Shown: positions 1 through 12,255, counted from the stretch's first letter. The stretch is 12,255 nucleotides of DNA from Candidatus Aenigmatarchaeota archaeon (GCA_039091855.1 JAWCLA010000012.1:1-12255); one strand, 5' to 3'. Notes: a model not told the origin generated them from the sequence alone. Translations and numbers: made by a program.

Positions 1-1038
1 ATTATTTATTGCAACTTTGATGAACCTGAACTTCAGGAAAAAAGAATTGAAGATATTCTAAAAGAATATTCAACACTAACTGATATGGATTACAGAAAAG
101 AAAGGATTTACTTATTTTTGGACGAAGCACAAAAATCTAAAAGCTGGATTGACAGTGTTAAGCTCATTTATGACAACTTCCCAAAAATTAAAATTTTGGT
201 TTCTGGTTCAGCATCACTTAATATCTTATCGGAAGCTAAAAAAAATTTAGCAGGCAGGGCTGTTTATTATGAATTAAGGCCGCTGAGTTTTAGTGAGTTT
301 TTGGATTTGAAAGGAATTATAATTGAAAAGAAAAGATTCCTGCTGTATCAAGACCTGTTGGAAAAGGAATTTGACAAATTCCTTTTAAGGCCATTTCCTG
401 AAATTGTTTTCGAAAAAGACAAATCTTTTATTAAAACATATATAAGGAACTCTGTTATTGAGCCAATTATACTGAAGGATATTCCAAAGGAATTCAAGGA
501 AGTTGATGTGCTTCTGCTGGAAAAAATTGTCAATATATTCCTTACAAATCCTGGACAATACCTACGAATTGACGAATTGGCAAAGGAGCTAGGAAGGGCT
601 AAAACAACCCTTTACAAAGCTATTTTCTATCTAGAGTTTTCGTTTTTGATTAAAAGATTACTGAACTTCAGGATATCAATAAGATCTGCTTCCAGAAAAC
701 TTTCAAGGATTTATGCTTATCATCCCTGTCTGCTTCTGCCTTTTGATGTAAATGAGGAACGATTTGCAGAGAATCTCGTACTTTTTGAACTCGGTGCAAA
801 ATATTACTGGCGTGATAAGGATAAAGAGATTGATTTCTTAAAGGAATTTGTACCAATTGAAGTAAAGTTCAAAACAAAAATTAGCAAGGAAGATACACAC
901 TGTATAGAATTCTTTCTCAAAAAATATGGAAAGTCTCTAAATTTTAACAGGGGATATATTATTACAAAAAATTTAGATGAAAAAAGAGGTAATGTTCAAA
1001 TGATTCCTTTGTGGAAGTTTTGTTTCAAGGGCCTGTAA
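1..1038 (+). CDS. AAA_14 + DUF4143-type ATP-binding protein, 5'-truncated by the window edge
   Basis: Frame 1 is open from base 1 (IIYCNFDEPELQEKRIEDILKEY...), so the true start and Walker A lie upstream of the window. Family motifs present: Walker B YLFLDEAQ, VSGSASL, LAGR, LRPLSFSEFL, an HTH-like LAKELGRAKTTLYKAI, and a C-terminal EIDFL...IPIEVK segment (PD-(D/E)xK-like DUF4143 end). Confidence 0.88.
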   Translation: MIYCNFDEPELQEKRIEDILKEYSTLTDMDYRKERIYLFLDEAQKSKSWIDSVKLIYDNFPKIKILVSGSASLNILSEAKKNLAGRAVYYELRPLSFSEFLDLKGIIIEKKRFLLYQDLLEKEFDKFLLRPFPEIVFEKDKSFIKTYIRNSVIEPIILKDIPKEFKEVDVLLLEKIVNIFLTNPGQYLRIDELAKELGRAKTTLYKAIFYLEFSFLIKRLLNFRISIRSASRKLSRIYAYHPCLLLPFDVNEERFAENLVLFELGAKYYWRDKDKEIDFLKEFVPIEVKFKTKISKEDTHCIEFFLKKYGKSLNFNRGYIITKNLDEKRGNVQMIPLWKFCFKGL

Positions 1039-1052
1039 TTTTGCGGGCCGCG

Positions 1053-1244
1053 TCACTTTTTAGATTTTTTATTGCTCTCGTGCACCCCGTGCCTGTACAT
1101 ATACTTAAGCCCCATGTAAGGCGTGATGTTCTTTTTCAGGTCGGCCTCCATTTTTGCCCTGAGGCGGCGCATAGCAAGCGCTATTCCAAGGAAAAGCAGT
1201 GAAAGGACTGCAAGAAGCATGTCCATTATGGTAACCTCGCTCAT
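1053..1244 (-). CDS. Small single-pass membrane protein (63 aa), last gene of the coiled-coil operon
   Basis: Hydrophobic segment MLLAVLSLLFLGIALAM followed by basic RRLR. ATGA overlap with the stop of the upstream 447-aa gene; GAGG upstream of the ATG. Confidence 0.7.
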   Translation of the reverse strand: MSEVTIMDMLLAVLSLLFLGIALAMRRLRAKMEADLKKNITPYMGLKYMYRHGVHESNKKSKK

Positions 1245-2584
1245 AACACTGCCTCGCTGTTTATTGCTGGAGCAGAAGGTGCAGGCAGGCTTTCGTTTGG
1301 TTTTGCATCCTTTGGAATTTCAGGCGGAAGGGGTTTCTGTATTTTTTGCTTCTGGGTTTTTTTCCTCTCCTCCTTCAGCTCCTTTACCGCATCAGTGAGC
1401 ATCTTCATCGCTTCCATCATAGGTGTCAGCCCATCCTTCAACGCTTTCTCGACCGTTTCCATCCTGCTCCTCGCGTCCGCAACCGATTCGGCATAAACCT
1501 GTATCTTTTCCTCAAGCCTGTCCAAATCAGCAGGTTTTTGCACCTGCATCTTGGAAATGGCATTCTCGAGAGAAGCAATCCTTTCCGCTATAGAACTTAC
1601 GCTGTTGTTCATCTCCTCAACAGAACTCTTGAACTCCTCAACGTTTTCTTCCATTTTTGATGTTTTTTTTGCGGAATGTTTCTCTATAAGGTCGTCAACG
1701 TCAAAATCAATGTCGTCCATTTCGTCTGTCTCTGGGACAAACCTTGGAAAAAACTTTCTCGGTGCAGGAGAGCCGTGCGTGAATGGCGGCTCGGGAAGCC
1801 CTGAAACAGGCTCTATTTCAACTGGTCTTGAGAAAGTGCGCTCTGGCTGTGGAGGTGCAGGCAACTTCCTTTCTGTTTTTGTCTCTGCCTCTCCTGAATA
1901 AGATTTTTCAGGAACTGGCTTTTCGGTGCCAGCCCTTGAAACAAACTCCCTGAGCGTAGATAGCTTTTCATAAACCAGCTCTGCCTTTCTTGTCTCCTCT
2001 TCCATCTTATTTAATGCCTCGCTTATTTGAGAAAGAGATTTCTCGAGCTTTTTCTCGTAACCCCCTGAAAGAGAGTCTATCTGCGACTTTACATCAACCC
2101 TCAGCTTTCTCATCTCGCTGTCCCTTTCCTCAATTTTCTCCGAAAGGTTTTTTGCCATTTCAGAGAGTGATGATATTTTCTTGTCCATCAGCTTGAACAT
2201 TTCCTCATACTTGGAAGTGTTTATTTGGGATGAAAGCTCTGTTCTTGTTTTTTTGATTTCGGCGTCCTTTTCGCTCAGCTTTTCGGAAAGGTTTTTTGCC
2301 ATTTCAGAGAGCGATGAAATCCTCTTGTCCATAAGCCTGAAGCTCTCTTCTGTTTTCTTTCCAATCTTTGCGAGGGTTTCTTCCATCATCTCTATCCTTT
2401 CCTCGAAGTTTGCTATGGATTTCTCCATCTCCGACATTTTTTCAGAGTTAGAGTCAACAAGCTCCTTGAGCTGCTGGGCAAGTTCCCTGTATCTCGACTT
2501 CCAAAGCTCTTCCTTTTCCTTAAGGCTCAAAATCCTGCTCTCTATTTTTTTGTAAATGTTCCTTTCGCCTGCTTTCAATACCAT
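1241..2584 (-). CDS. Coiled-coil protein (447 aa): N-terminal coiled coil, Pro-rich linker, second helical/coiled-coil domain, Pro-rich tail
   Basis: Long ORF with E/K-rich heptads. Linker LPAPPQPE...PEPPFTHGSPAP and tail KPLPPEIPKDAKPNESLPAPSAP. Starts 1 nt after the stop of the 1020-aa gene, with GAGGG upstream. Confidence 0.88.
   Translation of the reverse strand: MVLKAGERNIYKKIESRILSLKEKEELWKSRYRELAQQLKELVDSNSEKMSEMEKSIANFEERIEMMEETLAKIGKKTEESFRLMDKRISSLSEMAKNLSEKLSEKDAEIKKTRTELSSQINTSKYEEMFKLMDKKISSLSEMAKNLSEKIEERDSEMRKLRVDVKSQIDSLSGGYEKKLEKSLSQISEALNKMEEETRKAELVYEKLSTLREFVSRAGTEKPVPEKSYSGEAETKTERKLPAPPQPERTFSRPVEIEPVSGLPEPPFTHGSPAPRKFFPRFVPETDEMDDIDFDVDDLIEKHSAKKTSKMEENVEEFKSSVEEMNNSVSSIAERIASLENAISKMQVQKPADLDRLEEKIQVYAESVADARSRMETVEKALKDGLTPMMEAMKMLTDAVKELKEERKKTQKQKIQKPLPPEIPKDAKPNESLPAPSAPAINSEAVL
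2142..2311. repeat. Intragenic 144-nt (48-aa) tandem duplication in the 447-aa gene
   Basis: GAAAGGTTTTTTGCCATTTCAGAGAG is identical at 2142-2167 and 2286-2311. Protein: FRLMDKRISSLSEMAKNLSEK versus FKLMDKKISSLSEMAKNLSEK. Confidence 0.9.
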
Positions 2585-2585
2585 A

Positions 2586-5500
2586 TCATTCGCCCTCTTT
2601 CAGCATCTCATAGAGTTTTATCTGCTCTTCCTTCCATTCCTTTATGCCGTTCTTGAGCTCTTCCATCTCGTTGACTATTCCTGATATCTCCGCTTTCATT
2701 GATTCGTGTTTAGATAAGATGGAATTTATCTCGCCTGAAATCCTCCTAAGTATCTCATCCCTTGACTCAGAAATTCTTTTTTCAAGCTTCTTGTCCTCAA
2801 TTCCCTCTGTCTCAATCATCTTCACAACTCTTGTAAGGACAGATTCCATTCCCTTTATGTATTCCTGTTGCGCGGAAAGCCTCTTCTCAATCTGACGGAT
2901 TAATCCTTCGTTCTTTGCCTGCTCCTTTGCCATAAGCTCAAGCGCTGACTGGTGCTTCTCAATCCTCGAGGCAATCTCAGAATCATATGACTGCATCTTC
3001 TTCAATGTAAGCCCTGCCTCTGAAATCATTTTCTGAAGTGATTGCCTTGCAGAATCAGCATCTTTAAGCTGTTTGGCAAGAGCTGATGTTATTGCCGGAT
3101 ATTTCTTCATCTCGCTTTCAAGTGACTTTATCCTTTCCAGAACAGCCTTTCTTTCTGAAAGTATTTTCGAGTCAGATGACTGCCTAAAGGTCAGGATTGA
3201 CTGCTCAACCTTCTTTATCCTGTCGGAGATCTCCTCCTCAGATTTCCTGAACCTTTCATCAAGTTGTTTGGACATCTCGTTAAGCTTTGATATGGTTTGT
3301 GTTATAGACCTTACGCTTTCAGAAAGCCTTGCCTTCTCTTCAAGAAGGGCTTTCCTTTCTCTTGATATCTGTTCAGACAGTTCTGCTGCCCTTCTCTCCA
3401 TCTGCTCTGAAAGTGATGCTGTTTTTTGAAGGAAGGCTCTTCTATCCTCCTTTATCTCCCTTTCGAGGATTTTTCTTGCCTCTGATAAACTCCTTTTCTC
3501 GGAAGCCACGTGCGAGTAAACCTGTGAGATTTTGTTTTCAAGCGATTTCTCAACTACTGACATCCTTGAAGAAATCTCTTTATGCGATTCCATAATCTTT
3601 CTTTCAATGTCAGAATCTGCCTTTTCCAAACTTTTTCTCTCCAAAGAAAGCCTGTCTTCAAGCTCCTTAAGCCTGCTGTCAAGTCCTTCCAAAACCTCAC
3701 TGATTTTTGAATCAAAATTCTTGGAAACGGATGAAATCCTGCTTTCAAGGTTTTCGGTTGTTTTTTCGCTGAACGAATTCATTGTTGAGTCAACGAGGTC
3801 GAGGTGTTTTTTCTGGCTCGCCAAAAGCCCTGCCCTGAACTGCTCAAGCCTCGTGTTTGTCTTTTCCTCGAACCCTTTCAGCGCATCGGAAAGCCTTTTC
3901 TCGAAGTCTCTGTCATTGATTTTTATACCCTCAATTTTTTTGGACAGTGTGGAAATTTTTGCATCAATATCCTTTACAAGCCCTGCCTTGAAATCTGAAA
4001 TTTTTGCTTCAAGAAGCTCTGCCTGCCTCTTTTGCCACAGCTCTGAGGAAGACTTTGTTTTTGTCATCTTAAGGTCAATTTCCTTTTCAAAATCCTTCAT
4101 TTTTTCTGCAAGCTTTTCCTCAAACTTCCTGTCCATTGACTTAAGCTCTTCTGTTTTTCTGGAAATAACAGAAATCTTTTCATCAATCATCCTTTCTATA
4201 TCCGATTTTTCAGAAGCAATTCTATCTGCAAGTTCAGATATCCTTGAATCCAAGCTCTCAGACAGAGAATCTATCTTCGATTGCGCCTGCTCTGCAACAG
4301 AGTTTATTTTTTGTTCTATTCGGCTGTCTTGATTCCTTAAAAGAGACTCTGACTTTTTTATGTGACCTTCTATCCTTTTCGTAATTTCTGACTCCCTTGA
4401 AGAAAATGATTTCTTAATTTCGGAAAGCTCTTTTTCAAACCTTGTCCTTTGCAAACTCTGCTCCTCGGAAATCCCTGAAACCCTTTTTTCAAGGCTGTCC
4501 GAAACTGCCTTGACTTTGGATAACAGGATTTCTTCGTGCCTTTTCTGGCTCTCTCGAAGCCCTGATTTCATATTTTCTGTTTTGCTGTCAATCTTTTCCT
4601 CGAACCCTTTCAGCGCATCGGAAAGCCTTTTCTCGAAGTCCTTGTCCTCGAGCTTTAGGGATTCGAGCCTTTTTGAAAGGGAAGCCAGCCTTGAACTCAC
4701 TTCGGAGGAAAGTGAGGAGATTTTTGAGTCGAGAAGTTGGGAGTGCTTTTTGTCTTGGGAATCAATAATGGATTTTAGTTTGACCTCCTTATCTGCCAGC
4801 ATTTTCTCATAGGAATTTCTTATTTGGGAAAGCCTTTTCTCAAGCCTTTCATCCTCAATACCTATGCTGTCAATTTTTCTTGTTATCTTACCGACAGAGG
4901 ATTCAAGCGCTCTTATTGCAGCCTGCTGGCTTGAAAGCTTCTTCTCTATGTTGGCATCAGAAACGCGGGAGTTCTCAAGGCTTTTTTTCAGGGAGGCTGC
5001 TGTTGCCTTCAACTGCTTTACAAAAAGCTCGGTGTCCGCGACCCTCTTTTTTGTCTCCTCGTAGGAGGCTGCAAGAGCCCTCAGCGAGTCCATGGAATCT
5101 TGAAGCACTTCCTCGGAGGATTCTGTTATCTTCAGGGACATCCTGTCTTCAAGGGTCTTCAGCCTTGAATCAAAATGGTTTTTAATTTCGGAGATTGCGG
5201 ATTCTACGTCTCCCTCCTCCTTTGACTCCCTTTCCCTTATCTTGTTTACTTGCTCTCTTAAAACAGAAAGGTTTGCACCTATCCTGCGGAGCGATTTCTC
5301 GTTTTCAGCTATCCTCTTCCTTGCCTCCTCGTCAGCCAACCTTGTCTTTGAAAGCAAGGAAGAGAGTCCTCTTATCTCCTGCTCAAGCTCCGATATCCTT
5401 CGCGCCTCTGCCCTTATCTCGGAGATCTGGTCCTTTATTGGGGTTATCTCCTTGTCAACAAAATCAAGGATTCTCTTTCCAGCCTCCTCGTAAACCATAT

Positions 5501-5648
5501 AAGCCTCGGCAAGCTTCTGGCCAAGAAACCTTGTCCTCTCCAAAAGGAAAGCCCTGTCCTTCTCGAGCTGTTCTATCATCTGCTTCTGGCTCTGAGAATT
5601 TTTTTTCAGCTTCTCTATCCCCGAGCTTAGCTCTTCAATCTCTTTCAT
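2586..5648 (-). CDS. Very long all-helical coiled-coil protein (1020 aa) with internal repeat modules
   Basis: Long ORF rich in S/E/K/L/I with almost no Pro. No Walker A, ABC signature or hinge is visible, so it is not a true SMC/Rad50. Confidence 0.9.
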   Translation of the reverse strand: MKEIEELSSGIEKLKKNSQSQKQMIEQLEKDRAFLLERTRFLGQKLAEAYMVYEEAGKRILDFVDKEITPIKDQISEIRAEARRISELEQEIRGLSSLLSKTRLADEEARKRIAENEKSLRRIGANLSVLREQVNKIRERESKEEGDVESAISEIKNHFDSRLKTLEDRMSLKITESSEEVLQDSMDSLRALAASYEETKKRVADTELFVKQLKATAASLKKSLENSRVSDANIEKKLSSQQAAIRALESSVGKITRKIDSIGIEDERLEKRLSQIRNSYEKMLADKEVKLKSIIDSQDKKHSQLLDSKISSLSSEVSSRLASLSKRLESLKLEDKDFEKRLSDALKGFEEKIDSKTENMKSGLRESQKRHEEILLSKVKAVSDSLEKRVSGISEEQSLQRTRFEKELSEIKKSFSSRESEITKRIEGHIKKSESLLRNQDSRIEQKINSVAEQAQSKIDSLSESLDSRISELADRIASEKSDIERMIDEKISVISRKTEELKSMDRKFEEKLAEKMKDFEKEIDLKMTKTKSSSELWQKRQAELLEAKISDFKAGLVKDIDAKISTLSKKIEGIKINDRDFEKRLSDALKGFEEKTNTRLEQFRAGLLASQKKHLDLVDSTMNSFSEKTTENLESRISSVSKNFDSKISEVLEGLDSRLKELEDRLSLERKSLEKADSDIERKIMESHKEISSRMSVVEKSLENKISQVYSHVASEKRSLSEARKILEREIKEDRRAFLQKTASLSEQMERRAAELSEQISRERKALLEEKARLSESVRSITQTISKLNEMSKQLDERFRKSEEEISDRIKKVEQSILTFRQSSDSKILSERKAVLERIKSLESEMKKYPAITSALAKQLKDADSARQSLQKMISEAGLTLKKMQSYDSEIASRIEKHQSALELMAKEQAKNEGLIRQIEKRLSAQQEYIKGMESVLTRVVKMIETEGIEDKKLEKRISESRDEILRRISGEINSILSKHESMKAEISGIVNEMEELKNGIKEWKEEQIKLYEMLKEGE
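3860..4640. repeat. Exact 49-nt direct repeat inside the 1020-aa gene (3860-3908 and 4592-4640)
   Basis: TCTTTTCCTCGAACCCTTTCAGCGCATCGGAAAGCCTTTTCTCGAAGTC occurs twice, 732 nt (244 codons) apart. It encodes DFEKRLSDALKGFEEK. Confidence 0.93.
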
Positions 5649-5668
5649 AACCGCTTAAAGGAGAGTAA

Positions 5669-7516
5669 CTATTCTGCCTTCAGCTCCCTCAGGAGCCCGC
5701 TTATCCTCATCCTTTCCCTTTTTATTTTCTCCTCGACGCTCTTCCTTTCAAGAGAGACCTGCCTTATTTCGGATTCAAGCCTTGCCCTGTCAGATGCAAG
5801 CTGGCTTTCAAGCTTTGACTGCCTTTCCTTAAGGCTGGAAATCTCGGAATCCATCTTCCTTACTTGTGCAGAAAGCCCTTCCTTTTCTGCAAGCTTCTTC
5901 TGAATGGCTTTCAGGGAGGCATCTGCCTGAGAAATCCTTTCCCTGAGTGATTTTATCTCAGCAATGCTTCTCTGCAGGCTTGCAACATTTTCTGAAACAT
6001 CATCAAACCTGCTTTCGGCATCCCTAAGATTTTGTTCAAGCAACACTATTCTCTCCCTGTCAGCAGCCATTCTCTGCTCTATTGACTTTATAGATGACGA
6101 TAAAATCTCCGCCCTCTTTGAGAAAACATCCCTGACATCAATAACCTTGTTGATTGTTGCTGCCTGGTCGCTCATCTTCTTGGAAAGTTCTGCCATAAAA
6201 GAGTCTGTTGACTTCTGCTTCTCCCTGAGGCTTGCTATCTGGTCAGAATTCCTCTCAGATGATTTCTTCAGTCCCTGAATGTCATAATAGAACTTTCTCT
6301 CCAGGTTCTTTGACTTTTCATCAATCCACCTTCTCAAGTTTTCAGGAGCCTCCATCTCCTCTACTGTCTCAAGAATCTCCCTGTCCTTTTCGGACAAAGT
6401 CCTTAACTTCTCGTCCACAATCATATTATGTTTCTCGAGCTCCTGAAACCTCGGCTCGAAAAGCTCGACAACTATGTCCTTCACATTTGACTCCAGAACC
6501 TTTGGTGTTGTGTACTGCTGCATCTTGACAAGCTGCTCGTGATATTTCTCCATCATCTTTTCCATTCTCTTTCTTATGTTCATCTTGAGTATCTCAAGTC
6601 CCTGAAGGAATCTTGCCTCCTCTTCTGCAAACTTCTTGTATGCCTTTTCCTTTTCAGCCCTGAGCTCGTTTATTGTCTCCCTGAACTTCTTCAGTTCCTT
6701 TACCTCGTCTTCAAGCGAGCCTGCCCTTTTCTCAAGCTCACTTATCATATCCCTGCTTGACTTCAGGCTGTTCACTATCGGTTCTATCCTCTTTTTAATC
6801 TTCCTGTTAACCGTTTCGGGTATCGCTTCCTCCATAAGCTCGTCAGCGGAAAATATAATCTTCTTGAGCTTCTGTATGTTCTCTGCGCCGAGCTTGTCGT
6901 TTATCTCCCTGTACTGGGTTTCGAGCTCCTTCAGCTTCTCAAGCTCCTTTACCTTGTCTTCCAGGGAGGAAAGCCTGTACTCAACCTTCTTGCTCATTGT
7001 TGCAATAGTCTGGTTTAACGTGTCTATTGACCTTTTCACTTCTGTGAGTTCGGTTTGGAAATCAATTTGCTCCCCAAAGGCAGCAAGTCCTTGTGACACA
7101 ACTCCCGGCTGCTTTGGCTGATAAAGAGGGCTGCTCAATCTCTCGTTAAGCTGCATCACCTTTTCACCTATGTCCTTTATCTTGTCAAGCTCCTTCAGCC
7201 TTTCTGATATTTCTGCAATCTTTGGGTCAATCTTTTCCTTCATTGCGGCAGCAACCTGCTTCTTAACCTCATCCTTGTCCTTGCCGGAGGCGGCTATGCT
7301 TTCCTCGAGCTTTTTTATCTTGGCGTCAAACCTCTCACCAATCTCTTTCAGAACTGATTCTATGTTTCCTGTGTCAGGCTTGTTGTCAGAAAGTGTTTCT
7401 ATTATTTCAGCAAGGCTTTTGCTCTTCTCAGTCAGCTCGGCCTTTTCCTTTTCCAGCTGCTCAAGCTTCTTCTTTGCTTCCTGAAGTTCCTTTTCTATGA
7501 GCTGCCCCTCTGCCAT
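5669..7516 (-). CDS. Long coiled-coil protein (~615 aa)
   Basis: E/K-rich heptad ORF. The ATG at 7516 is preferred over the GTG at 7525 because it sits 1 nt after the upstream TAA, the same spacing as the 1020/447-aa junction. Confidence 0.88.
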   Translation of the reverse strand: MAEGQLIEKELQEAKKKLEQLEKEKAELTEKSKSLAEIIETLSDNKPDTGNIESVLKEIGERFDAKIKKLEESIAASGKDKDEVKKQVAAAMKEKIDPKIAEISERLKELDKIKDIGEKVMQLNERLSSPLYQPKQPGVVSQGLAAFGEQIDFQTELTEVKRSIDTLNQTIATMSKKVEYRLSSLEDKVKELEKLKELETQYREINDKLGAENIQKLKKIIFSADELMEEAIPETVNRKIKKRIEPIVNSLKSSRDMISELEKRAGSLEDEVKELKKFRETINELRAEKEKAYKKFAEEEARFLQGLEILKMNIRKRMEKMMEKYHEQLVKMQQYTTPKVLESNVKDIVVELFEPRFQELEKHNMIVDEKLRTLSEKDREILETVEEMEAPENLRRWIDEKSKNLERKFYYDIQGLKKSSERNSDQIASLREKQKSTDSFMAELSKKMSDQAATINKVIDVRDVFSKRAEILSSSIKSIEQRMAADRERIVLLEQNLRDAESRFDDVSENVASLQRSIAEIKSLRERISQADASLKAIQKKLAEKEGLSAQVRKMDSEISSLKERQSKLESQLASDRARLESEIRQVSLERKSVEEKIKRERMRISGLLRELKAE

Positions 7517-7517
7517 C

Positions 7518-7799
7518 TTACTCACTCAATCCCTTTATCAACTTCTCTATAACAGCCTCCTGCCTTTCAATCCTTGCCTGAATCTCTCTCATTTTGAGCC
7601 CTATATCATCTATTTTTGTTTTAAGTTCTGAATTTATTGTATATTTGTCCAACTCTTTGGAAAAATCTGACATTCCAAGCCCTGGCAAAAAGCGATAGTA
7701 GTGAAGCCTTTCCTGATAGACCTTGTTTATTTTGTAAAACTCATACGTCAAGAAGCAAACAGAACCTACCAGGGCCACGAACAAGGCAAGTTCAAACAT
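7518..7799 (-). CDS. Small membrane-anchored coiled-coil protein (93 aa), first gene of the operon
   Basis: N-terminal hydrophobic helix MFELALFVALVGSVCFLTYEFY and C-terminal coiled coil KTKIDDIGLKMREIQARIERQEAVIEKLIKGL. Confidence 0.8.
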   Translation of the reverse strand: MFELALFVALVGSVCFLTYEFYKINKVYQERLHYYRFLPGLGMSDFSKELDKYTINSELKTKIDDIGLKMREIQARIERQEAVIEKLIKGLSE

Positions 7800-7993
7800 A
7801 TAAAAATATTGGAATCAGGGTTTATTAATGAAATTGTATAAATATAATAGTATAAATATATTAAAAAAATGGCAAAAAAAAATTTGCCATAAAATAGTGT
7901 GTCAGAACAAAATCGAGGGTGGTCGCTGCCATAACTTGCCTTTCGTCAAAAATCTATATTAGGAATGTACAATAATTTGAGGGATTGGTACTC
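7800..7993. promoter_or_regulatory. AT-rich divergent promoter region
   Basis: Lies between divergently transcribed genes. GTATAAATATA direct repeat at 7836-7846 and 7850-7860 (TATA-like). TTAATAAA on the minus strand at 7828-7821, about 22-29 nt upstream of the 7799 ATG, fits a leaderless archaeal promoter. Confidence 0.55.
7869..7890. promoter_or_regulatory. Perfect inverted repeat ATGGCAAA-N6-TTTGCCAT, candidate operator
   Basis: 8-bp arms at 7869-7876 and 7883-7890 with an A6 spacer, inside the divergent intergenic region. Confidence 0.45.
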
Positions 7994-8644
7994 ATGCCGA
8001 AACTTACTGACTATAAGAATTTCTGGCTTATCTGGCTTAGCGCTGCTGGAAGGCCTCAAGGCATATCGCTTTTCACCATACAGAATGAGTGGGGGATAAA
8101 GACGAACTACCTGTATCACGAGGAGGCAGGGTTGGGCAAGCCATTGTACGTGACTATGATAAGGGATGGGTATCTAATTAAGGAAGGAAGAAAGATAAAA
8201 GTAAAGTTTGACTGGATTACAGATTTCATTAAAGAAAGGTATCAGCCTTCAGGATTTGTTGACTATTGGATTCCTTACAGGATTATAGGCAGCAAGTGGC
8301 CTGATGTTCAGTCATTTATCGAAAAGCATTCATCTGTGCTCTTCGACCCGAAGAACCTCAGGATACTTTACAGGAATAACAAGGATATACTTGGTGATTG
8401 CGGCCAGCACATTTTCACTGACATATTTATATACGTTCTGTTCAGCAACCTGATAGTTTTCTGCAAGAAGTACAAGGCGGAAATCGTTTTGAGAATCCTT
8501 CTTACAGCCTTCTCGATGTTCACTGAGAGGGATATTATGAACTACATGAGGCAAATTCACAGCCAGATAGGAAAGGAAGTTCCCTTGATAATAAAGGATG
8601 AGGCAGAAATGAATGCTCTTATGAGTCCGTTTAACTGGGGCTAA
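7994..8644 (+). CDS. Hypothetical protein (~216 aa), possible N-terminal winged-helix-like domain
   Basis: Clean ORF. The ATG at 7994 has GAGGG ~10 nt upstream (the ORF track starts at TTG 7985). SLFTIQNEWGIKTNYLYH...LYVTMIRDGYLIKEGRKIKV has a helix-helix-wing-like pattern; the fold assignment is inference. Confidence 0.78.
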   Translation: MPKLTDYKNFWLIWLSAAGRPQGISLFTIQNEWGIKTNYLYHEEAGLGKPLYVTMIRDGYLIKEGRKIKVKFDWITDFIKERYQPSGFVDYWIPYRIIGSKWPDVQSFIEKHSSVLFDPKNLRILYRNNKDILGDCGQHIFTDIFIYVLFSNLIVFCKKYKAEIVLRILLTAFSMFTERDIMNYMRQIHSQIGKEVPLIIKDEAEMNALMSPFNWG

Positions 8645-8785
8645 AATTTGACTGGGTTAATTTTATATGAAAATTCGCTCAATAGCAGGTTTTTATTGCT
8701 TGGGGAGAATTATTATACAAGTGATTGGGTTCGGCAGGTGTTAAGTTCATATATCCTCTAAATCGCAAAGTTAAAAACAAGACAA

Positions 8786-8870
8786 TGACGACTTTGACCA
8801 ACTGAATCAGGTCGTCTTTCCAAAACCGGATTGACGAATTCGACCAACATAATAAATTCGTCTTTCCAAA
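8786..8870. repeat. Two 39-nt stem-loop direct repeats (8786-8824, 8832-8870)
   Basis: T-GACGACTT-TGACCAACTGAATC-AGGTCGTC-TTTCCAAA and T-GACGAATT-CGACCAACATAATA-AATTCGTC-TTTCCAAA. Confidence 0.85.
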
Positions 8871-8874
8871 TCCT

Positions 8875-9357
8875 GTCACAAGGCGAAGCGCAATTGGAAG
8901 GCAGTGTAACTGCCTTCTCCGTTGAGTAGCAAAGACAACCAACAACAATGTTAATTGTAACAAGGCGAATGTTAAGTGGAAGTTCCGAAGGAACTTCTCC
9001 GTCAAGTCACAATGTTAAACAATGGCAAAGCAAAATGTAACAAGGCGAATGTTAAGTGGAAGTTGGCGAAGCCGACTTCTCCGTCACTGTCGCTTTGAGT
9101 ATAAGTCACAAGGCGAAGCATAATTGGAAGTTCCGAAGGAACTTCTCCGTTGAGTAGCAAAGATAACCAATAAAAATGTGAACTGTAACAAGGCGAATGT
9201 TAAGTGGAAGTTCCGAAGGAACTTCTCCGTCAAGTCACAATGTTAAACAATGGCAAAGCAAAATGTAACAAGGCGAATGTTAAGTGGAAGTTCCGAAGGA
9301 ACTTCTCCGTTGAGTAGCAAAGACAAGCAACAACAATGTTAATTGTAACAAGGCGAA
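8875..9357. repeat. Array of ~46-nt hairpin repeats with mostly 34-nt linkers (CRISPR-like architecture, no cas genes in window)
   Basis: GT(A/C)ACAAGGCGAA starts at 8875, 8957, 9037, 9105, 9185, 9265 and 9345 (spacings 82, 80, 68, 80, 80, 80). Consensus unit GTAACAAGGCGAATGTTAAGTGGAAGTTCCGAAGGAACTTCTCCGT. The seventh copy is truncated. Confidence 0.95.
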
Positions 9358-9361
9358 GTAT

Positions 9362-10138
9362 ATGACAAGGATAACAGGCGTGGTTTCTGGAAAGGGTGGT
9401 GTTGGAAAGACAACACTTGTTGCAAATCTCGGAGCTGCCCTTGCCTCCTTCTACAAGAAGAGAGTGATAATAGTTGACTGCAATGTGACCACTTCTCACC
9501 TCGGTCTTTATCTTGGTATGTATTACCATCCTGTCTCTCTCAACCAGGTTTTGAGGGGAGAGGCGTCAATGGATGAGGCTATTTATGATTATACCATACC
9601 TGGATTGAAGGTGATACCAGCATCGCTTTCGCTTGATGAACTCAAAGGTGTGGACATAAGCGAACTCAAATACAGGATAAAGGACCTTTTTGGCAAGGCG
9701 GACATAGTCTTTCTGGACTCTGCACCCGGTCTGGGAAAGGAAGGTCTCGCAACCCTGAGGGCAAGCGATGAAATTCTTTTTGTTACAACTCCCTTTGTTC
9801 CTCACGTGATAGATGTGATAAAGTGCTACCAAATCGCAAAGGAGGTTGGAGCTAAACCACTTGGGCTTGTTGTTAACATGTCAGGGGAAGGAAGGCACGA
9901 GTTAAGCCCTCAGGACATAGAAAAATTAGTGGAGCTTCCTGTTATCTCGATAATCCCGAGGGACAAGCACATTCTAAGAAGCCTTGCATCTAAAATCCCT
10001 GTCGTCGACCTTAACCCAAACTCCCCTGCCAGCAGGGAAATCAAAAGGCTTGCGGCAGCCATACTAGGGGAGGAATACAAGCCTTACAAGCCAAAGAGGC
10101 TGGAGAGGCTGATAAGGGCGATGAGAATAAGGAGATGA
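9362..10138 (+). CDS. minD: MinD-family (MinD/ParA superfamily) P-loop ATPase
   Basis: Deviant Walker A SGKGGVGKTT, VIIVDCN, VFLDSAPG, GLVVNM and IIPRD. Lacks the DxDPQGN motif typical of ParA/Soj. Basic amphipathic C-terminus KRLERLIRAMRIRR resembles a membrane-targeting helix. Confidence 0.88.
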   Translation: MTRITGVVSGKGGVGKTTLVANLGAALASFYKKRVIIVDCNVTTSHLGLYLGMYYHPVSLNQVLRGEASMDEAIYDYTIPGLKVIPASLSLDELKGVDISELKYRIKDLFGKADIVFLDSAPGLGKEGLATLRASDEILFVTTPFVPHVIDVIKCYQIAKEVGAKPLGLVVNMSGEGRHELSPQDIEKLVELPVISIIPRDKHILRSLASKIPVVDLNPNSPASREIKRLAAAILGEEYKPYKPKRLERLIRAMRIRR

Positions 10139-10265
10139 TTACAAAGTTTTTACCATAGTGCCAATTTTTACATCAATCAAAGTTGCTGTTATAAAAAATC
10201 TTATTATACATTTAAACAAAATTATTATAGCAAACAAACATTCTGGCTTCCGTCAGGAGCTTCAT
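10139..10265 (+). promoter_or_regulatory. AT-rich promoter region and RBS of the KaiC-like/PAS gene pair
   Basis: TTATTATA at 10201-10208 and 10222-10229 with TTTAAA between them. AGGAG just upstream of the ATG at 10266. Confidence 0.45.
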
Positions 10266-10781
10266 ATGAAAGGACCCGTGGCCTCTGGAAAGGGTGAAAT
10301 AGAGGTGTTGGTTTTTTCTGACAAGGATTACTCCAAAAAAATCATTGAATTGTCGTCATCAGTCTCTTCGTCTTTCAGCAGGATATGCTATGTCACGCTT
10401 AACAAGCCGTTTTCTGTTGTTTCTGAAAGCCTTAAAAAGTCAGGCGTAAGCACAGAAAAATTCTTCTTTGTCGACTGCACAGGTAAGCCCGAAAGAAAAG
10501 AAGGGCAGGCAGTCTATGTGTCTTCTCCGAAGGCATTGACAGAAATGAGCATAACGATAACAAAGGTTCTGGAATTGGGAAAGGTTGATGCCCTTATTTT
10601 TGACTCGCTTTCCACTCTTATGATTTATGAGGAGCCTTCTGTTGTCCTGAAATTTTTCCATTCAGTTCTGTCATCCCTAAGGTCAAGGAGGGTGTCGGGA
10701 TTTTTCGTCTGCCTTAAGGGCGGAACGGGCTCGGGGGTTTTGAAAGACATCTCTATGTTTGCTGACAGGGTGGTGGAATGA
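10266..10781 (+). CDS. Inactive KaiC/RecA-fold ATPase-like protein (~171 aa)
   Basis: Motifs ICYVTLNKP, FFFVDC, SSPKALTEMSITI, LIFDSLSTLMIY and VLKFFHSV are typical of archaeal single-domain KaiC-like proteins. No Walker A GKT/S. Start placed at ATG 10266 (AGGAG RBS) rather than 10158. Confidence 0.75.
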   Translation: MKGPVASGKGEIEVLVFSDKDYSKKIIELSSSVSSSFSRICYVTLNKPFSVVSESLKKSGVSTEKFFFVDCTGKPERKEGQAVYVSSPKALTEMSITITKVLELGKVDALIFDSLSTLMIYEEPSVVLKFFHSVLSSLRSRRVSGFFVCLKGGTGSGVLKDISMFADRVVE

Positions 10782-12255
10782 GTGCTGACAACAGGGAACA
10801 AGACAAATTCCATGAACTGCTAAACAACATGCCTGATGCCATTGCAATTATTGACAGAAAAGGAACGCTTTTTGAGGCAAACGAGGCAGCCGAAAGGCTA
10901 ACAGGTTACAGAAAAAAGGAGCTTTTGGGAAAGAACATATTTGATACACAGATATTTGACAGGCACACAAAGATGCTTGTTCTGGAAAAAATGTCATTGC
11001 GCCTTTCCGGCAAGAAGGTTAGTCCGTATGAGATAGAAATCCGAAGAAAGGACGGGAAGTCAATACCAATTGAATTGAATGCCAGCCTTATTGATTATGC
11101 AGGGAAGAAGGCAGTTCTTGTTATTATAAGGGATGTGAGAGAGCGAAAGAAGGCGGAGCAAAAACTATATGATAGCGAGGAAAGGTTCAGGCAGATTTCT
11201 GAAATAGTGAAAGAATTTATATGGGAAGTTGATGCAAAAGGACTATATACCTACGCAAGCTCAAACGTAAAAGCGATCCTTGGATACAGTTCAGAAGAGA
11301 TTGTTGGGAAAAAACATTTCTTTGATTTTTTCCATCCTGATGAAAGGGAAAGCTTGAAAAAGAGTGCTTTTTCGGTTTTTGCCAAAAAAGAGGCTTTCAG
11401 GAGATTCATCAATAGGAATTTGCGAAAGGATGGGAAGGTTGTAATACTTGAAACAAGCGGGCTGCCTCTAATTGATAATAAAGGCAAGCTTATTGGGTAC
11501 AGGGGTGCTGACACAGACATAACAGAGCGCATAAAGACGGAAGAAAAATACAAAAACATAATCCAGACAAGCATAGATGGATTCTGGGTTGTTGACAATA
11601 AGGGTAGGTTTCTTGAAGTGAATGATGCGTACTGCAAAATGATTGGTTATACCCGCGAGGAACTGCTGAAAATGAGTATATCGGACATTGAGGCAGTTGA
11701 GAAGCCAGAGGAAACAGAAGCTCACATAAAGAATATAATGAAAATTGGTTCAGACAGGTTTGAAACAAAGCACAAGAGAAAAGACGGTAAGCTCATTGAT
11801 GTTGAGATAAGCGTCAGATATGAAAGGGAGACAGGAGAAATGTTTGTTTTTGCGAGGGACATAACTGAAAGAAAGCAGACAGAAAAGAAAATAACCGAAT
11901 CATTCGAGAAAGCAAGAATGATGGAGGACATTGTAAACAGAAGCCCTGTCGTCGCATTTCTGTGGAAGAACGCGGAGGGGTGGCCTGTTGAGTTCGTTTC
12001 TGAAAACATCAGGATGTTTGGATACGAGCCTGAGGAATTGATTTCAGGAAAAATACCCTACTCGAAAATTGTTCATCCCGAAGACCTACAAAGGATTGGG
12101 GAAGAGGTATCGAGATACTCAAAGATGAAAATAAAGGAATTCAAGCAGGAATACAGGATTGTGACAAAATCAGGCGATGTCCGTTGGATTGATGACAGGA
12201 CTTGGGTAAGGAGGGACCCAAGTGGAAAAATAACGCATTACCAGGGCATAGTAAT
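10778..12255 (+). CDS. Multi-PAS sensor protein (at least 4 PAS/PAC domains), 3'-truncated; absent from the ORF track
   Basis: ATGA overlap with the upstream stop; the frame is open to the window end. Translation includes MSADNREQDKFHELLNNMPDAIAIIDRKG...ANEAAERLTGY...RDVRERK, WEVDAKG...LGYSSEE...HPDE...DITERIK, FWVVDNKGRFLEVNDAYCKMIGY...RDITERK, and LWKNAEGWPVEFVSENI...VHPEDL...RWIDDR. Confidence 0.93.
   Translation, partial: MSADNREQDKFHELLNNMPDAIAIIDRKGTLFEANEAAERLTGYRKKELLGKNIFDTQIFDRHTKMLVLEKMSLRLSGKKVSPYEIEIRRKDGKSIPIELNASLIDYAGKKAVLVIIRDVRERKKAEQKLYDSEERFRQISEIVKEFIWEVDAKGLYTYASSNVKAILGYSSEEIVGKKHFFDFFHPDERESLKKSAFSVFAKKEAFRRFINRNLRKDGKVVILETSGLPLIDNKGKLIGYRGADTDITERIKTEEKYKNIIQTSIDGFWVVDNKGRFLEVNDAYCKMIGYTREELLKMSISDIEAVEKPEETEAHIKNIMKIGSDRFETKHKRKDGKLIDVEISVRYERETGEMFVFARDITERKQTEKKITESFEKARMMEDIVNRSPVVAFLWKNAEGWPVEFVSENIRMFGYEPEELISGKIPYSKIVHPEDLQRIGEEVSRYSKMKIKEFKQEYRIVTKSGDVRWIDDRTWVRRDPSGKITHYQGIV

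Follow-up and report, generated by a model that had tools for sequence, protein, structure and literature searches.

Which function could require three giant coiled-coil proteins that are encoded in a row between two tiny membrane proteins? This question is raised by a stretch of 12,255 nucleotides from Candidatus Aenigmatarchaeota archaeon (GCA_039091855.1, JAWCLA010000012.1:1-12255), hereafter called the window, which spans bases 1-12,255 of a contig of 21,149 bases in a genome of 689 kb that is distributed over 38 contigs and is 84% complete. A check of the open reading frames (ORFs) in the window recovered five co-directional genes, here named A to E, on the minus strand within positions 1053 to 7799, with the same sizes (93, 615, 1020, 447 and 63 amino acids, aa) and the same junctions as in the original prediction that drew attention to this operon. 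Outside the coordinates covered by that prediction, two further genes were found to travel with the operon, one of which codes for a protein that we call p219 and the other for a MinD paralog. The genes and their products are as follows:

A: 7799..7518, minus strand, 93 aa
B: 7516..5669, minus strand, 615 aa from ATG, or 618 aa with the GTG at 7525
C: 5648..2586, minus strand, 1020 aa
D: 2584..1241, minus strand, 447 aa
E: 1244..1053, minus strand, 63 aa
p219: 7985..8644, plus strand, 219 aa, or 216 aa from a probable ATG at 7994; putative winged-helix-like N-terminal domain
MinD-type ATPase: 9362..10138, plus strand, NCBIfam TIGR01969; one of three paralogs in the genome

A single nucleotide lies between the stop codon of A and the ATG of B, 20 nt between B and C and 1 nt between C and D, and the genes for D and E overlap by 4 nt. 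The 615-aa form of B is the likelier one, because the B proteins of relatives start at residues after the ATG. The operon faces p219 across an intergenic region, and a 717-bp gap separates p219 from MinD.

The best explanation that we can offer for this arrangement is that the five genes represent the structural half of a lineage-specific module in the Aenigmatarchaeota, of which MinD and p219 would form the other half. On balance, and with modest confidence, we lean toward the interpretation that the five proteins constitute a membrane-tethered scaffold inside the cell that is governed by MinD. No published description of such a module was found in the limited literature collection that was consulted.

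The first line of evidence is the gene neighborhood. A search with C gave matches in 15 of 40 relatives, and the corresponding 15 loci were mapped by ORF calling and BLAST. Since the loci were selected by their match to C, the presence of C in all of them is not a result, and it is instead the company of C that is informative: p219 and MinD are located directly beside the rod genes in 15 of the 15 related loci. In eight loci, from the families f2 and f6, the genes for p219, MinD, A, B and C all share a strand, in many cases with stop and start codons that overlap, and the D position is occupied by a rod gene in seven of the eight. In family f1, to which the window belongs, the p219-MinD pair is divergent from the rods. 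The gene order is kept across three families of the order. The rods have diverged to identities between families of 25-36% for B and 22-26% for C. We consider that the gene arrangement is not due to chance, because it recurs in the relatives.

A profile of the B core was then applied to the phylum, with matches in 63 of 371 genomes at E<=0.001 and in 42 of 371 at E<=1e-35. The genomes with strong matches all belong to families f1, f2 and f6, with the exception of one 2.9-kb contig of another family. A profile for p219 matched 64 of the 371 genomes; p219 is present in 41 of the 42 genomes with a strong B core, and in 40 of these 41 it is located on the same contig within a distance of about 3 kb. 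Two genomes of the same genus without a B match carry p219 on short contigs, near the contig end, and thus some of the B-core absences are assembly gaps. Among 1.84 billion representative proteins, there were 69 matches to the B core at E<=1e-3 and 18 at E<=1e-30, and no relative was found in viral contigs. The B-core and p219 families are rare, and they are unnamed in public resources.

The weaker B-core matches led to a second set of 18 loci. Five of these (L042, L050, L051, L052 and L053), which represent four f1 genera and a single genus from outside that family, contain a reduced triad of MinD, a protein of 56-97 aa with an N-terminal membrane helix and a B-like rod of 274-866 aa that retains the N-terminal helix motif and part of the core. 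Variants of the triad were identified in L039, L043 and L044, and in one genome (G322) the full and the reduced system occur together.

The second line of evidence comes from the MinD-type ATPase. It matches the NCBIfam model minD_arch (TIGR01969) with 223 bits (222.4 bits in a scan of the genome; cut-off 201.75), and the deviant Walker A motif, S9 G10 K11 G12 G13 V14 G15 K16 T17 T18, is invariant in 16 of 16 MinD sequences. The source genome encodes three MinD paralogs along with two FtsZ proteins, and the other two MinD genes have no adjoining coiled-coil genes. In a maximum-likelihood tree of 33 MinDs, from which haloarchaeal MinDs were left out, the 26 that neighbor such genes group together in a single clade (ultrafast bootstrap 100, SH-aLRT 98) that excludes the seven other paralogs, including the other two of the source genome; the midpoint root served for drawing only and the split that defines the clade does not depend on the root. 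A tree of the B core agrees with the MinD tree at the family level. From the dedicated MinD clade and the agreement between the two trees, we conclude that the ATPase and the rods are inherited together as a unit, as judged by the sequences. Furthermore, the C-terminal 11 residues are the most amphipathic stretch of that length in the whole protein in 11 of the 16 MinD sequences, with a net charge of 0 to +6 that is positive in most of them. A C-terminal amphipathic helix that targets the protein to the membrane is described as a hallmark of MinD (PMC13170346), and the cationic amphipathic helix at this end of the protein is a predicted membrane-binding element.

The two small proteins are the predicted membrane anchors. 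The maximum Kyte-Doolittle hydropathy over 19 residues is 1.97 for A and 2.48 for E, in a single N-terminal stretch of each, compared to no value above 0.42 for B, C and D, and the small proteins thus fit their earlier description as membrane-helical. In A, the membrane helix at about residues 4-21 is followed by a basic juxtamembrane stretch, a heptad helix at about 54-89 and a C-terminus of the type LIKGLSE, whereas E has a membrane helix at about 9-25 and then a basic C-terminal tail. Both proteins have a charge of -1 or -2 before the membrane helix and of +3 or +4 after it. Given this charge distribution, the positive-inside rule predicts that the tails of A and E, and hence the rods B, C and D, are cytoplasmic. 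Likewise, B, C and D do not start with a stretch that resembles a signal peptide, the maximum hydropathy over 10 residues within the first 40 being 0.18, -0.29 and 0.04, respectively. Among 16 loci, with the window counted, B is immediately preceded by an A-like gene in 12, and in 7 the gene that follows the last rod encodes a small membrane protein built like E. The A alignment comprises 17 A-like proteins, and the E-like forms of genus g1 and family f6 are grouped here by build and position only.

The bulk of the operon encodes rods. According to a crude score, heptads account for 62% of the sequence in B, 74% in C and 68% in D, as opposed to 5-12%, with a maximum of 24%, in 20 shuffled versions of each, and 0% of p219 and MinD; the earlier characterization of the giant proteins as mostly coiled coil thus holds. 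An AlphaFold2 model of B, based on an alignment of 37 rows (mean predicted local distance difference test score, pLDDT, 71.3; predicted template modeling score, pTM, 0.22), is helical throughout, with single helices at residues 231-335 (105 residues) and 392-614 (223 residues). B is the best conserved of the rods and has an N-terminal helix of the form LEKEK...LAxIIE, a C-terminal LLRELK tail and, at about 136-283, a core outside the heptad pattern in which GLAAFG, KLGxENxQKL, FSADEL and IPE can be recognized, with invariant G, N and P residues. C consists of a conserved head of about 90 aa (YEEAGKRxLDFV), a rod that is variable and repetitive, and an end that matches the tail motif described below in a looser form; its gene contains an internal repeat of 66 nt (91% identity, 732-nt spacing), and five close homologs of its head are 836-1632 aa long. 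In D, the heptad regions at 6-222 and 302-387 are separated by a proline-rich and acidic linker and followed by a proline-rich C-terminal tail, and the gene contains an internal repeat of 101 nt (76% identity, 144-nt spacing). Clear homologs of D were found within the same genus only (E 4e-69 and 2e-60), and matches elsewhere were weak.

The earlier statement that these proteins belong to no named or characterized family also stands, since the searches against Pfam, NCBIfam, PADLOC, PHROGs and PDB sequences gave only weak or sub-threshold matches. In Pfam and NCBIfam, the sub-threshold matches of B, C and D fell in the coiled-coil segments of numerous families that are unrelated to each other, with ATG17_like at 25.7 bits (cut-off 43) and SMC_prok_B at 50.8 bits (cut-off 567) as the best. 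The matches in PHROGs were likewise weak and of the coiled-coil type, to families of tape-measure, scaffold and SbcC-like proteins. For the B core, the PDB sequence search gave weak coiled-coil matches only (<=27.4 bits), which were to fusion proteins of viruses, GCN4 fusions and designed coils and were set aside as compositional. For B, the ESM Atlas gave a best feature score of 0.90, to unnamed bacterial clusters, and structural template modeling scores, normalized by the query, of no more than 0.28, none of which was usable. A word-based search for B homologs was dominated by coiled-coil candidates, and the close relatives alone were scored.

Several named families were considered individually and rejected. 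For SMC, Rad50 and SbcC, the SMC_prok_B match mentioned above and a Rad50 match of 36.9 bits (cut-off 700) fall at internal positions in the arms, and Pfam identified no SMC_N or AAA head domain on the rods. The names "chromosome segregation ATPase" and "SbcCD ATPase subunit" that have been assigned to homologs of B and C are therefore not supported and are artefacts of the coiled-coil composition. The scores were also too low for intermediate filaments (Pfam Filament PF00038, 20.9 bits for B and 16.5 bits for D, cut-off 40), for crescentin (Rod_CreS PF19220, 19.8 bits compared to a cut-off of 100, and solely in the D-position rod of a relative, L019) and for EzrA (PF06160, 15 bits for D compared to 39.6), in addition to which the membrane helix is not fused to B, C or D.

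A short C-terminal motif may connect the anchors with the rods. The motif [LIVM][LIVMA][KREN][EG][LFI][KGSRE] falls among the final 10 residues in both A (11 of 12 proteins) and B (14 of 16), compared to a background of 2 of 184 other proteins from the same loci. It could represent a shared docking or bundling tail, but we treat this as a lead only, because the motif was defined after the sequences had been seen and the rows are related to each other.

The remaining partner, p219, had no match in Pfam, NCBIfam or PDB sequences. Homologs were identified with a word index (155 proteins); all of those with a source name are called "hypothetical protein," all organisms named are Aenigmarchaeota, and none has a Pfam domain. 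The AlphaFold2 model of p219 (mean pLDDT 86.6, pTM 0.85) had no match in the PDB at E<=0.001 with Foldseek. In a VIA comparison, the 50 best rows were mostly winged-helix regulators and domains (Z-DNA-binding, RPA32, histone H1), which were aligned to residues 1-78 or slightly beyond, with 57-86 residues aligned at a root-mean-square deviation of 1.8-5.0 and Z scores of 6.3-7.7, where a Z score below 8 may mean a common arrangement. The model is thus suggestive of a winged-helix-like domain at residues 1-78, followed by a C-terminal domain that is helical. The protein has an isoelectric point of 9.0, and it could be the transcription regulator of the operon.

A hint about the purpose of the module comes from its neighbors in the relatives. 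A large protein adjoins p219 or MinD in 11 loci; full-length copies are 1163-1621 aa, and three more copies are truncated where the locus or contig ends. The protein has a membrane helix near the C-terminus, is 35-40% identical between families and, in the three copies that were scanned with Pfam, contains NPCBM_assoc or MG2-type domains. In the short cytoplasmic tails of these surface proteins we recognized the motif Y[KR]xG[LIV]I[ST], which occurs 11 times in the 532 proteins of all loci fetched: in eight surface-protein tails and at the C-termini of three reduced B-like rods. Two of seven tails gave a sub-threshold match to SHOCT (PF09851/PF20612), the surface-protein tail in L024 with 14.3 bits (cut-off 27) and the short B-like rod in L051 with 13.3 bits (cut-off 24).

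Taken together, one can envisage the following mechanism. B, C and D would be cytoplasmic, all-helical rods that could reach lengths of roughly 90, 150 and 65 nm if fully extended. A and E, as bitopic proteins with cytoplasmic tails, would hold these rods under the membrane, possibly via the shared tails, and together with the rods they would form a scaffold or landmark beneath the cytoplasmic membrane. ATP-bound MinD would bind to the same membrane by its C-terminal amphipathic helix and control where the scaffold assembles or sits. One protein of the module might serve as the activator of the MinD ATPase. In ParA/MinD systems, the activators of the ATPase show little conservation and work through short peptides of positive charge that are located at the N-terminus or close to it (PMC13170346). 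B would be the best candidate, because its N-terminus is rich in K and R in most relatives. The purpose would be to organize something at the envelope, and the cargo is probably located there, because the surface proteins of the relatives adjoin the module and share their tail motif with the short B-like rods. The contacts between the proteins, the formation of a scaffold, its control by MinD and the nature of the cargo are what we infer from these patterns. The membrane-tethered scaffold is the part of the original prediction that we retain, and it is still the best reading of the operon.

Several observations weigh against this interpretation. The N-terminus of B in the window is less basic than in the relatives, where it is mostly rich in K and R. 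The strict tail motif is found in only 3 of 15 C proteins (12 of 15 with the looser form) and in 0 of 12 D proteins, and it carries the post hoc character and the relatedness of the rows noted above. A visual resemblance among the B, C and D heads was rejected as paralogy, as hhalign gave 59% probability for C and D over 25 columns and 36% for C and B. The anchors are not universal: A is missing from 4 of the 16 loci, and no E-like gene was seen in 9. The module is patchy, being strong in 42 of 371 genomes from three families of one order plus the one short outlier contig, and a conserved neighborhood within one order may reflect inherited gene order rather than joint function. In the source genome, at 84% completeness, tblastn gave no match to the surface protein, and the motif Y[KR]xG[LIV]I[ST] was not found either. 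Finally, no RNA runs are listed that cover positions 5000-9000 of the window; the five runs listed for this segment are all DNA, labeled hot springs metagenome, and come from two studies.

A more specific version of the scaffold hypothesis is that the module is the cytoplasmic organizer of the cell-surface or host-contact apparatus of DPANN archaea, in which a rod lattice patterned by MinD would gather the giant surface proteins at one site via their cytoplasmic tails. We regard this as possible but tentative, well short of an even chance. If true, it would be the first polar organizer known in archaea that is built from a ParA/MinD ATPase plus coiled coils, and the rod lattice would be a candidate material of archaeal submembrane plates of the "polar cap" type. 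A type IV filament system is another possible cargo. The source genome contains five matches to the PilB/T2SSE ATPase family (contigs C1, C35, C34 and C13), of which four reach E<=3e-19, and archaellin had no match in this 84% complete assembly.

We also considered the possibility that MinD and the products of A to E control the division site by acting on the placement of FtsZ, with the rods serving as a division-site landmark or as a scaffold for an inhibitor. The two FtsZ genes in the genome would fit such a role, and division regulators of the EzrA and DivIVA type combine a membrane anchor with a cytoplasmic coiled coil. Furthermore, PomX and PomY, the coiled-coil partners of a ParA/MinD ATPase, position the Z-ring (PMC7993993; PMC13170346). 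However, none of the four MinDs acts in division in Haloferax, the sole archaeon studied (PMC11588486), and two further MinD paralogs in the source genome could serve division. All genomes of the phylum must divide, yet strong B-core matches were found only in the 42 mentioned above, and no MinC- or MinE-like gene was identified in the Pfam and NCBIfam scans of the window. We therefore consider a role in division unlikely.

Another hypothesis is that the module segregates DNA or tethers the nucleoid to the membrane, so that p219 would be a DNA adaptor, the ATPase a ParA-like motor and the rods a tie between the DNA and the membrane. A ParA/MinD ATPase together with a DNA-binding adaptor is the standard design of partition systems, and the winged-helix-like N-terminal domain and the high isoelectric point of p219, as well as an inverted repeat in the divergent intergenic region, are consistent with this idea. 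Yet the ATPase scores above the minD_arch cut-off and ends in a MinD-like amphipathic helix, no p219 adjoins MinD, A and B in the five reduced systems, and the Z scores that suggest a winged helix are below the bar of the tool, while p219 could be just an operon regulator. A segregation machine is, in our judgment, quite improbable.

There may also be no joint machine at all, but simply fast-evolving coiled coils that have remained beside MinD in an inherited order. The rods diverge rapidly, with D and E recognizable mainly within the genus, and the strong evidence all comes from one order in which gene order is generally conserved. However, other families retain the triad of MinD, A and B in reduced or rearranged form, one genome has it in a second copy, and the dedicated MinD clade, the tight or overlapping genes and the conserved non-heptad motifs in B and C make such passive linkage very unlikely.

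The host-contact stalk that the original prediction had listed among its options, with exported rods forming an external fiber anchored by A and E, is not supported by the analysis and is hardly credible. DPANN archaea do attach to hosts, a large attachment organelle is described for a co-culture of Nanobdellota (PMC11420986), and giant surface proteins adjoin the module in relatives. The predicted topology, however, places the rods in the cytoplasm, as judged by the inward tails of A and E and the lack of a hydrophobic N-terminus in B, C and D, and MinD is itself cytoplasmic. Equally implausible is a mobile or defense element whose coiled coils would be akin to those in the arms of ZorA (Zorya), LmuB (Lamassu) or JetC (Wadjet), for although PADLOC gave weak matches to these (<=33.6 bits) and a low-GC gene of the candidate family PDC-S01 adjoins E, the alignments fall inside the coiled coil, no other component of these systems is present in the window, Pfam, NCBIfam and PADLOC identified no ATPase, MotA/ExbB or nuclease domain on the rods, the GC content is native, the MinD and B trees agree at the family level and no relative was seen on viral contigs.

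The principle of combining an ATPase with a coiled-coil scaffold, as in the MinD-governed scaffold that we favor, is known from bacteria. Bacillus subtilis uses a membrane-binding MinD that ends in an amphipathic helix, the membrane adaptor MinJ and the coiled-coil landmark DivIVA, and in EzrA an N-terminal membrane helix is followed by a long cytoplasmic coiled coil. In the archaeal module, by contrast, the anchors and the rods are separate chains and the rods are far longer, and Pfam identified no MinC, MinJ-like PDZ or DivIVA domain in the window. In the PomXYZ system of Myxococcus xanthus, a ParA/MinD-family ATPase is likewise encoded with large coiled-coil scaffolds, and the activators, which show little conservation, work through short charged peptides (PMC13170346; PMC7993993). 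However, PomZ binds to the nucleoid rather than the membrane, PomX and PomY have no membrane anchors and the system serves bacterial cell division; no sequence relation was found, but the libraries searched contain no model of PomX or PomY. The Streptomyces polarisome of ParA with Scy, FilP and DivIVA is similar in having very long, variable and repetitive coiled-coil scaffolds that interact with a ParA-type ATPase at the membrane (PMC3718342; PMC6599971), but it has no small bitopic anchors, the Streptomyces ParA segregates chromosomes and there is no sign of homology, as seen from the sub-threshold Filament and Rod_CreS scores given above.

The closest archaeal parallels are MinD4 and MinD2 of Haloferax volcanii, which act outside division by positioning or shaping other structures. 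The Haloferax MinDs position the motility and chemotaxis machinery and affect cell shape, with partners that are unidentified, and MinD2 is encoded together with a small partner of unknown function; the available text reports no coiled-coil scaffold or small anchor with any of them (PMC11588486). What is new in the Aenigmatarchaeota is the protein families, the separate small anchors, the winged-helix partner and the setting in DPANN archaea. The targets of archaeal MinDs are largely unknown, and in this case the likely partners are encoded alongside the ATPase and are inherited with it, so that the question of the target becomes directly testable with recombinant proteins. The module would be the first archaeal coiled-coil membrane scaffold that is tied to a ParA/MinD ATPase, and it bears on the problem of how a tiny DPANN cell organizes its envelope and its site of host contact.

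Two further features of the window belong to the immediate setting of the module:

Divergent intergenic region between A and p219: 7800..7984, no strand, 185 bp, 27% GC, with TATA-like boxes
DUF7504 (KaiC/RecA-like) gene: 10158..10781, plus strand, directly 3' of MinD (PF24336, 32.3 bits, cut-off 27)

The intergenic region probably functions as a promoter region. It contains an inverted repeat at 7870-7889, with 7-nt arms (TGGCAAA/TTTGCCA) and a 6-nt spacer of A residues, that is a possible operator for the winged-helix protein; its letters differ in L010. Upstream of p219, a GC-rich block at 7898-7950 (consensus CAGAACRAAATCGAGGGNGGTCGC and the partner stretch that follows it) is kept in the three loci of the genus, being located at about 12195-12260 in L010 and upstream of p219 in L011, and in families f2 and f6 there are GC-rich islands at the equivalent place. 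The hairpin that this block can form is stable for the L010 sequence (z -1.9), whereas that of the window is not (z +0.97), and a claim for an RNA structure at this site was dropped for that reason. Rfam and tRNA scans of the window gave no match. The GC content of the operon, 0.38-0.47, is close to the 0.423 of the genome.

On the other side of MinD, the plus-strand segment from 10158 to 12253, which extends to about position 14225 of the contig, encodes the DUF7504 protein and, next to it, one that contains four PAS domains; farther 3', outside the window, lies the gene for a 608-aa protein with two predicted membrane helices. A DUF7504 homolog is found near MinD in 4 of the 15 related loci, all from family f1 (L010, L011, L016 and L022), and it is possibly associated with the module. 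In L016, a Cache-HAMP protein is encoded after the DUF7504 gene. The DUF7504, PAS and Cache-HAMP proteins might provide sensory input to the MinD module.

At the opposite end of the window, a gene for an ATPase of the AAA_14/DUF4143 type (1-1038, plus strand), which is cut by the start of the contig, adjoins E and converges on the end of the operon. It has 31.8% GC, compared to 42.3% for the genome, and matches the PADLOC candidate defense family PDC-S01 (E 5.5e-40), and on these grounds it is probably a foreign or defense-island gene. In one locus of family f6 (L021, on G035:C39), the C position at about 10230-12219 is held by opposite-strand ORFs, including one for a 396-aa protein with four predicted membrane helices, and B and the D-like gene remain; this may be due to an insertion or to an assembly problem.

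Finally, the gap between p219 and MinD contains a tandem array at 8870-9357 of about six 80-nt units (9108-9357, period 80 and 3.1 copies in Tandem Repeats Finder), each of which consists of a hairpin between constant flanks. The minus-strand ORFs at 8679-9005, 9002-9160 and 9230-9529 overlap the array and are probably spurious. The array had no match in Rfam and no counterpart at the equivalent position in three relatives. With a strict pattern, 28 units were identified on 11 contigs of the source genome (G000), which besides the window's are C38, C33, C12, C13, C23, C36, C6, C11, C34 and C37. The inner hairpin occurs in 10 distinct sequences, all of which close a stem of 3-5 bp via compensating changes, and the units look like a dispersed family of structured repeats.

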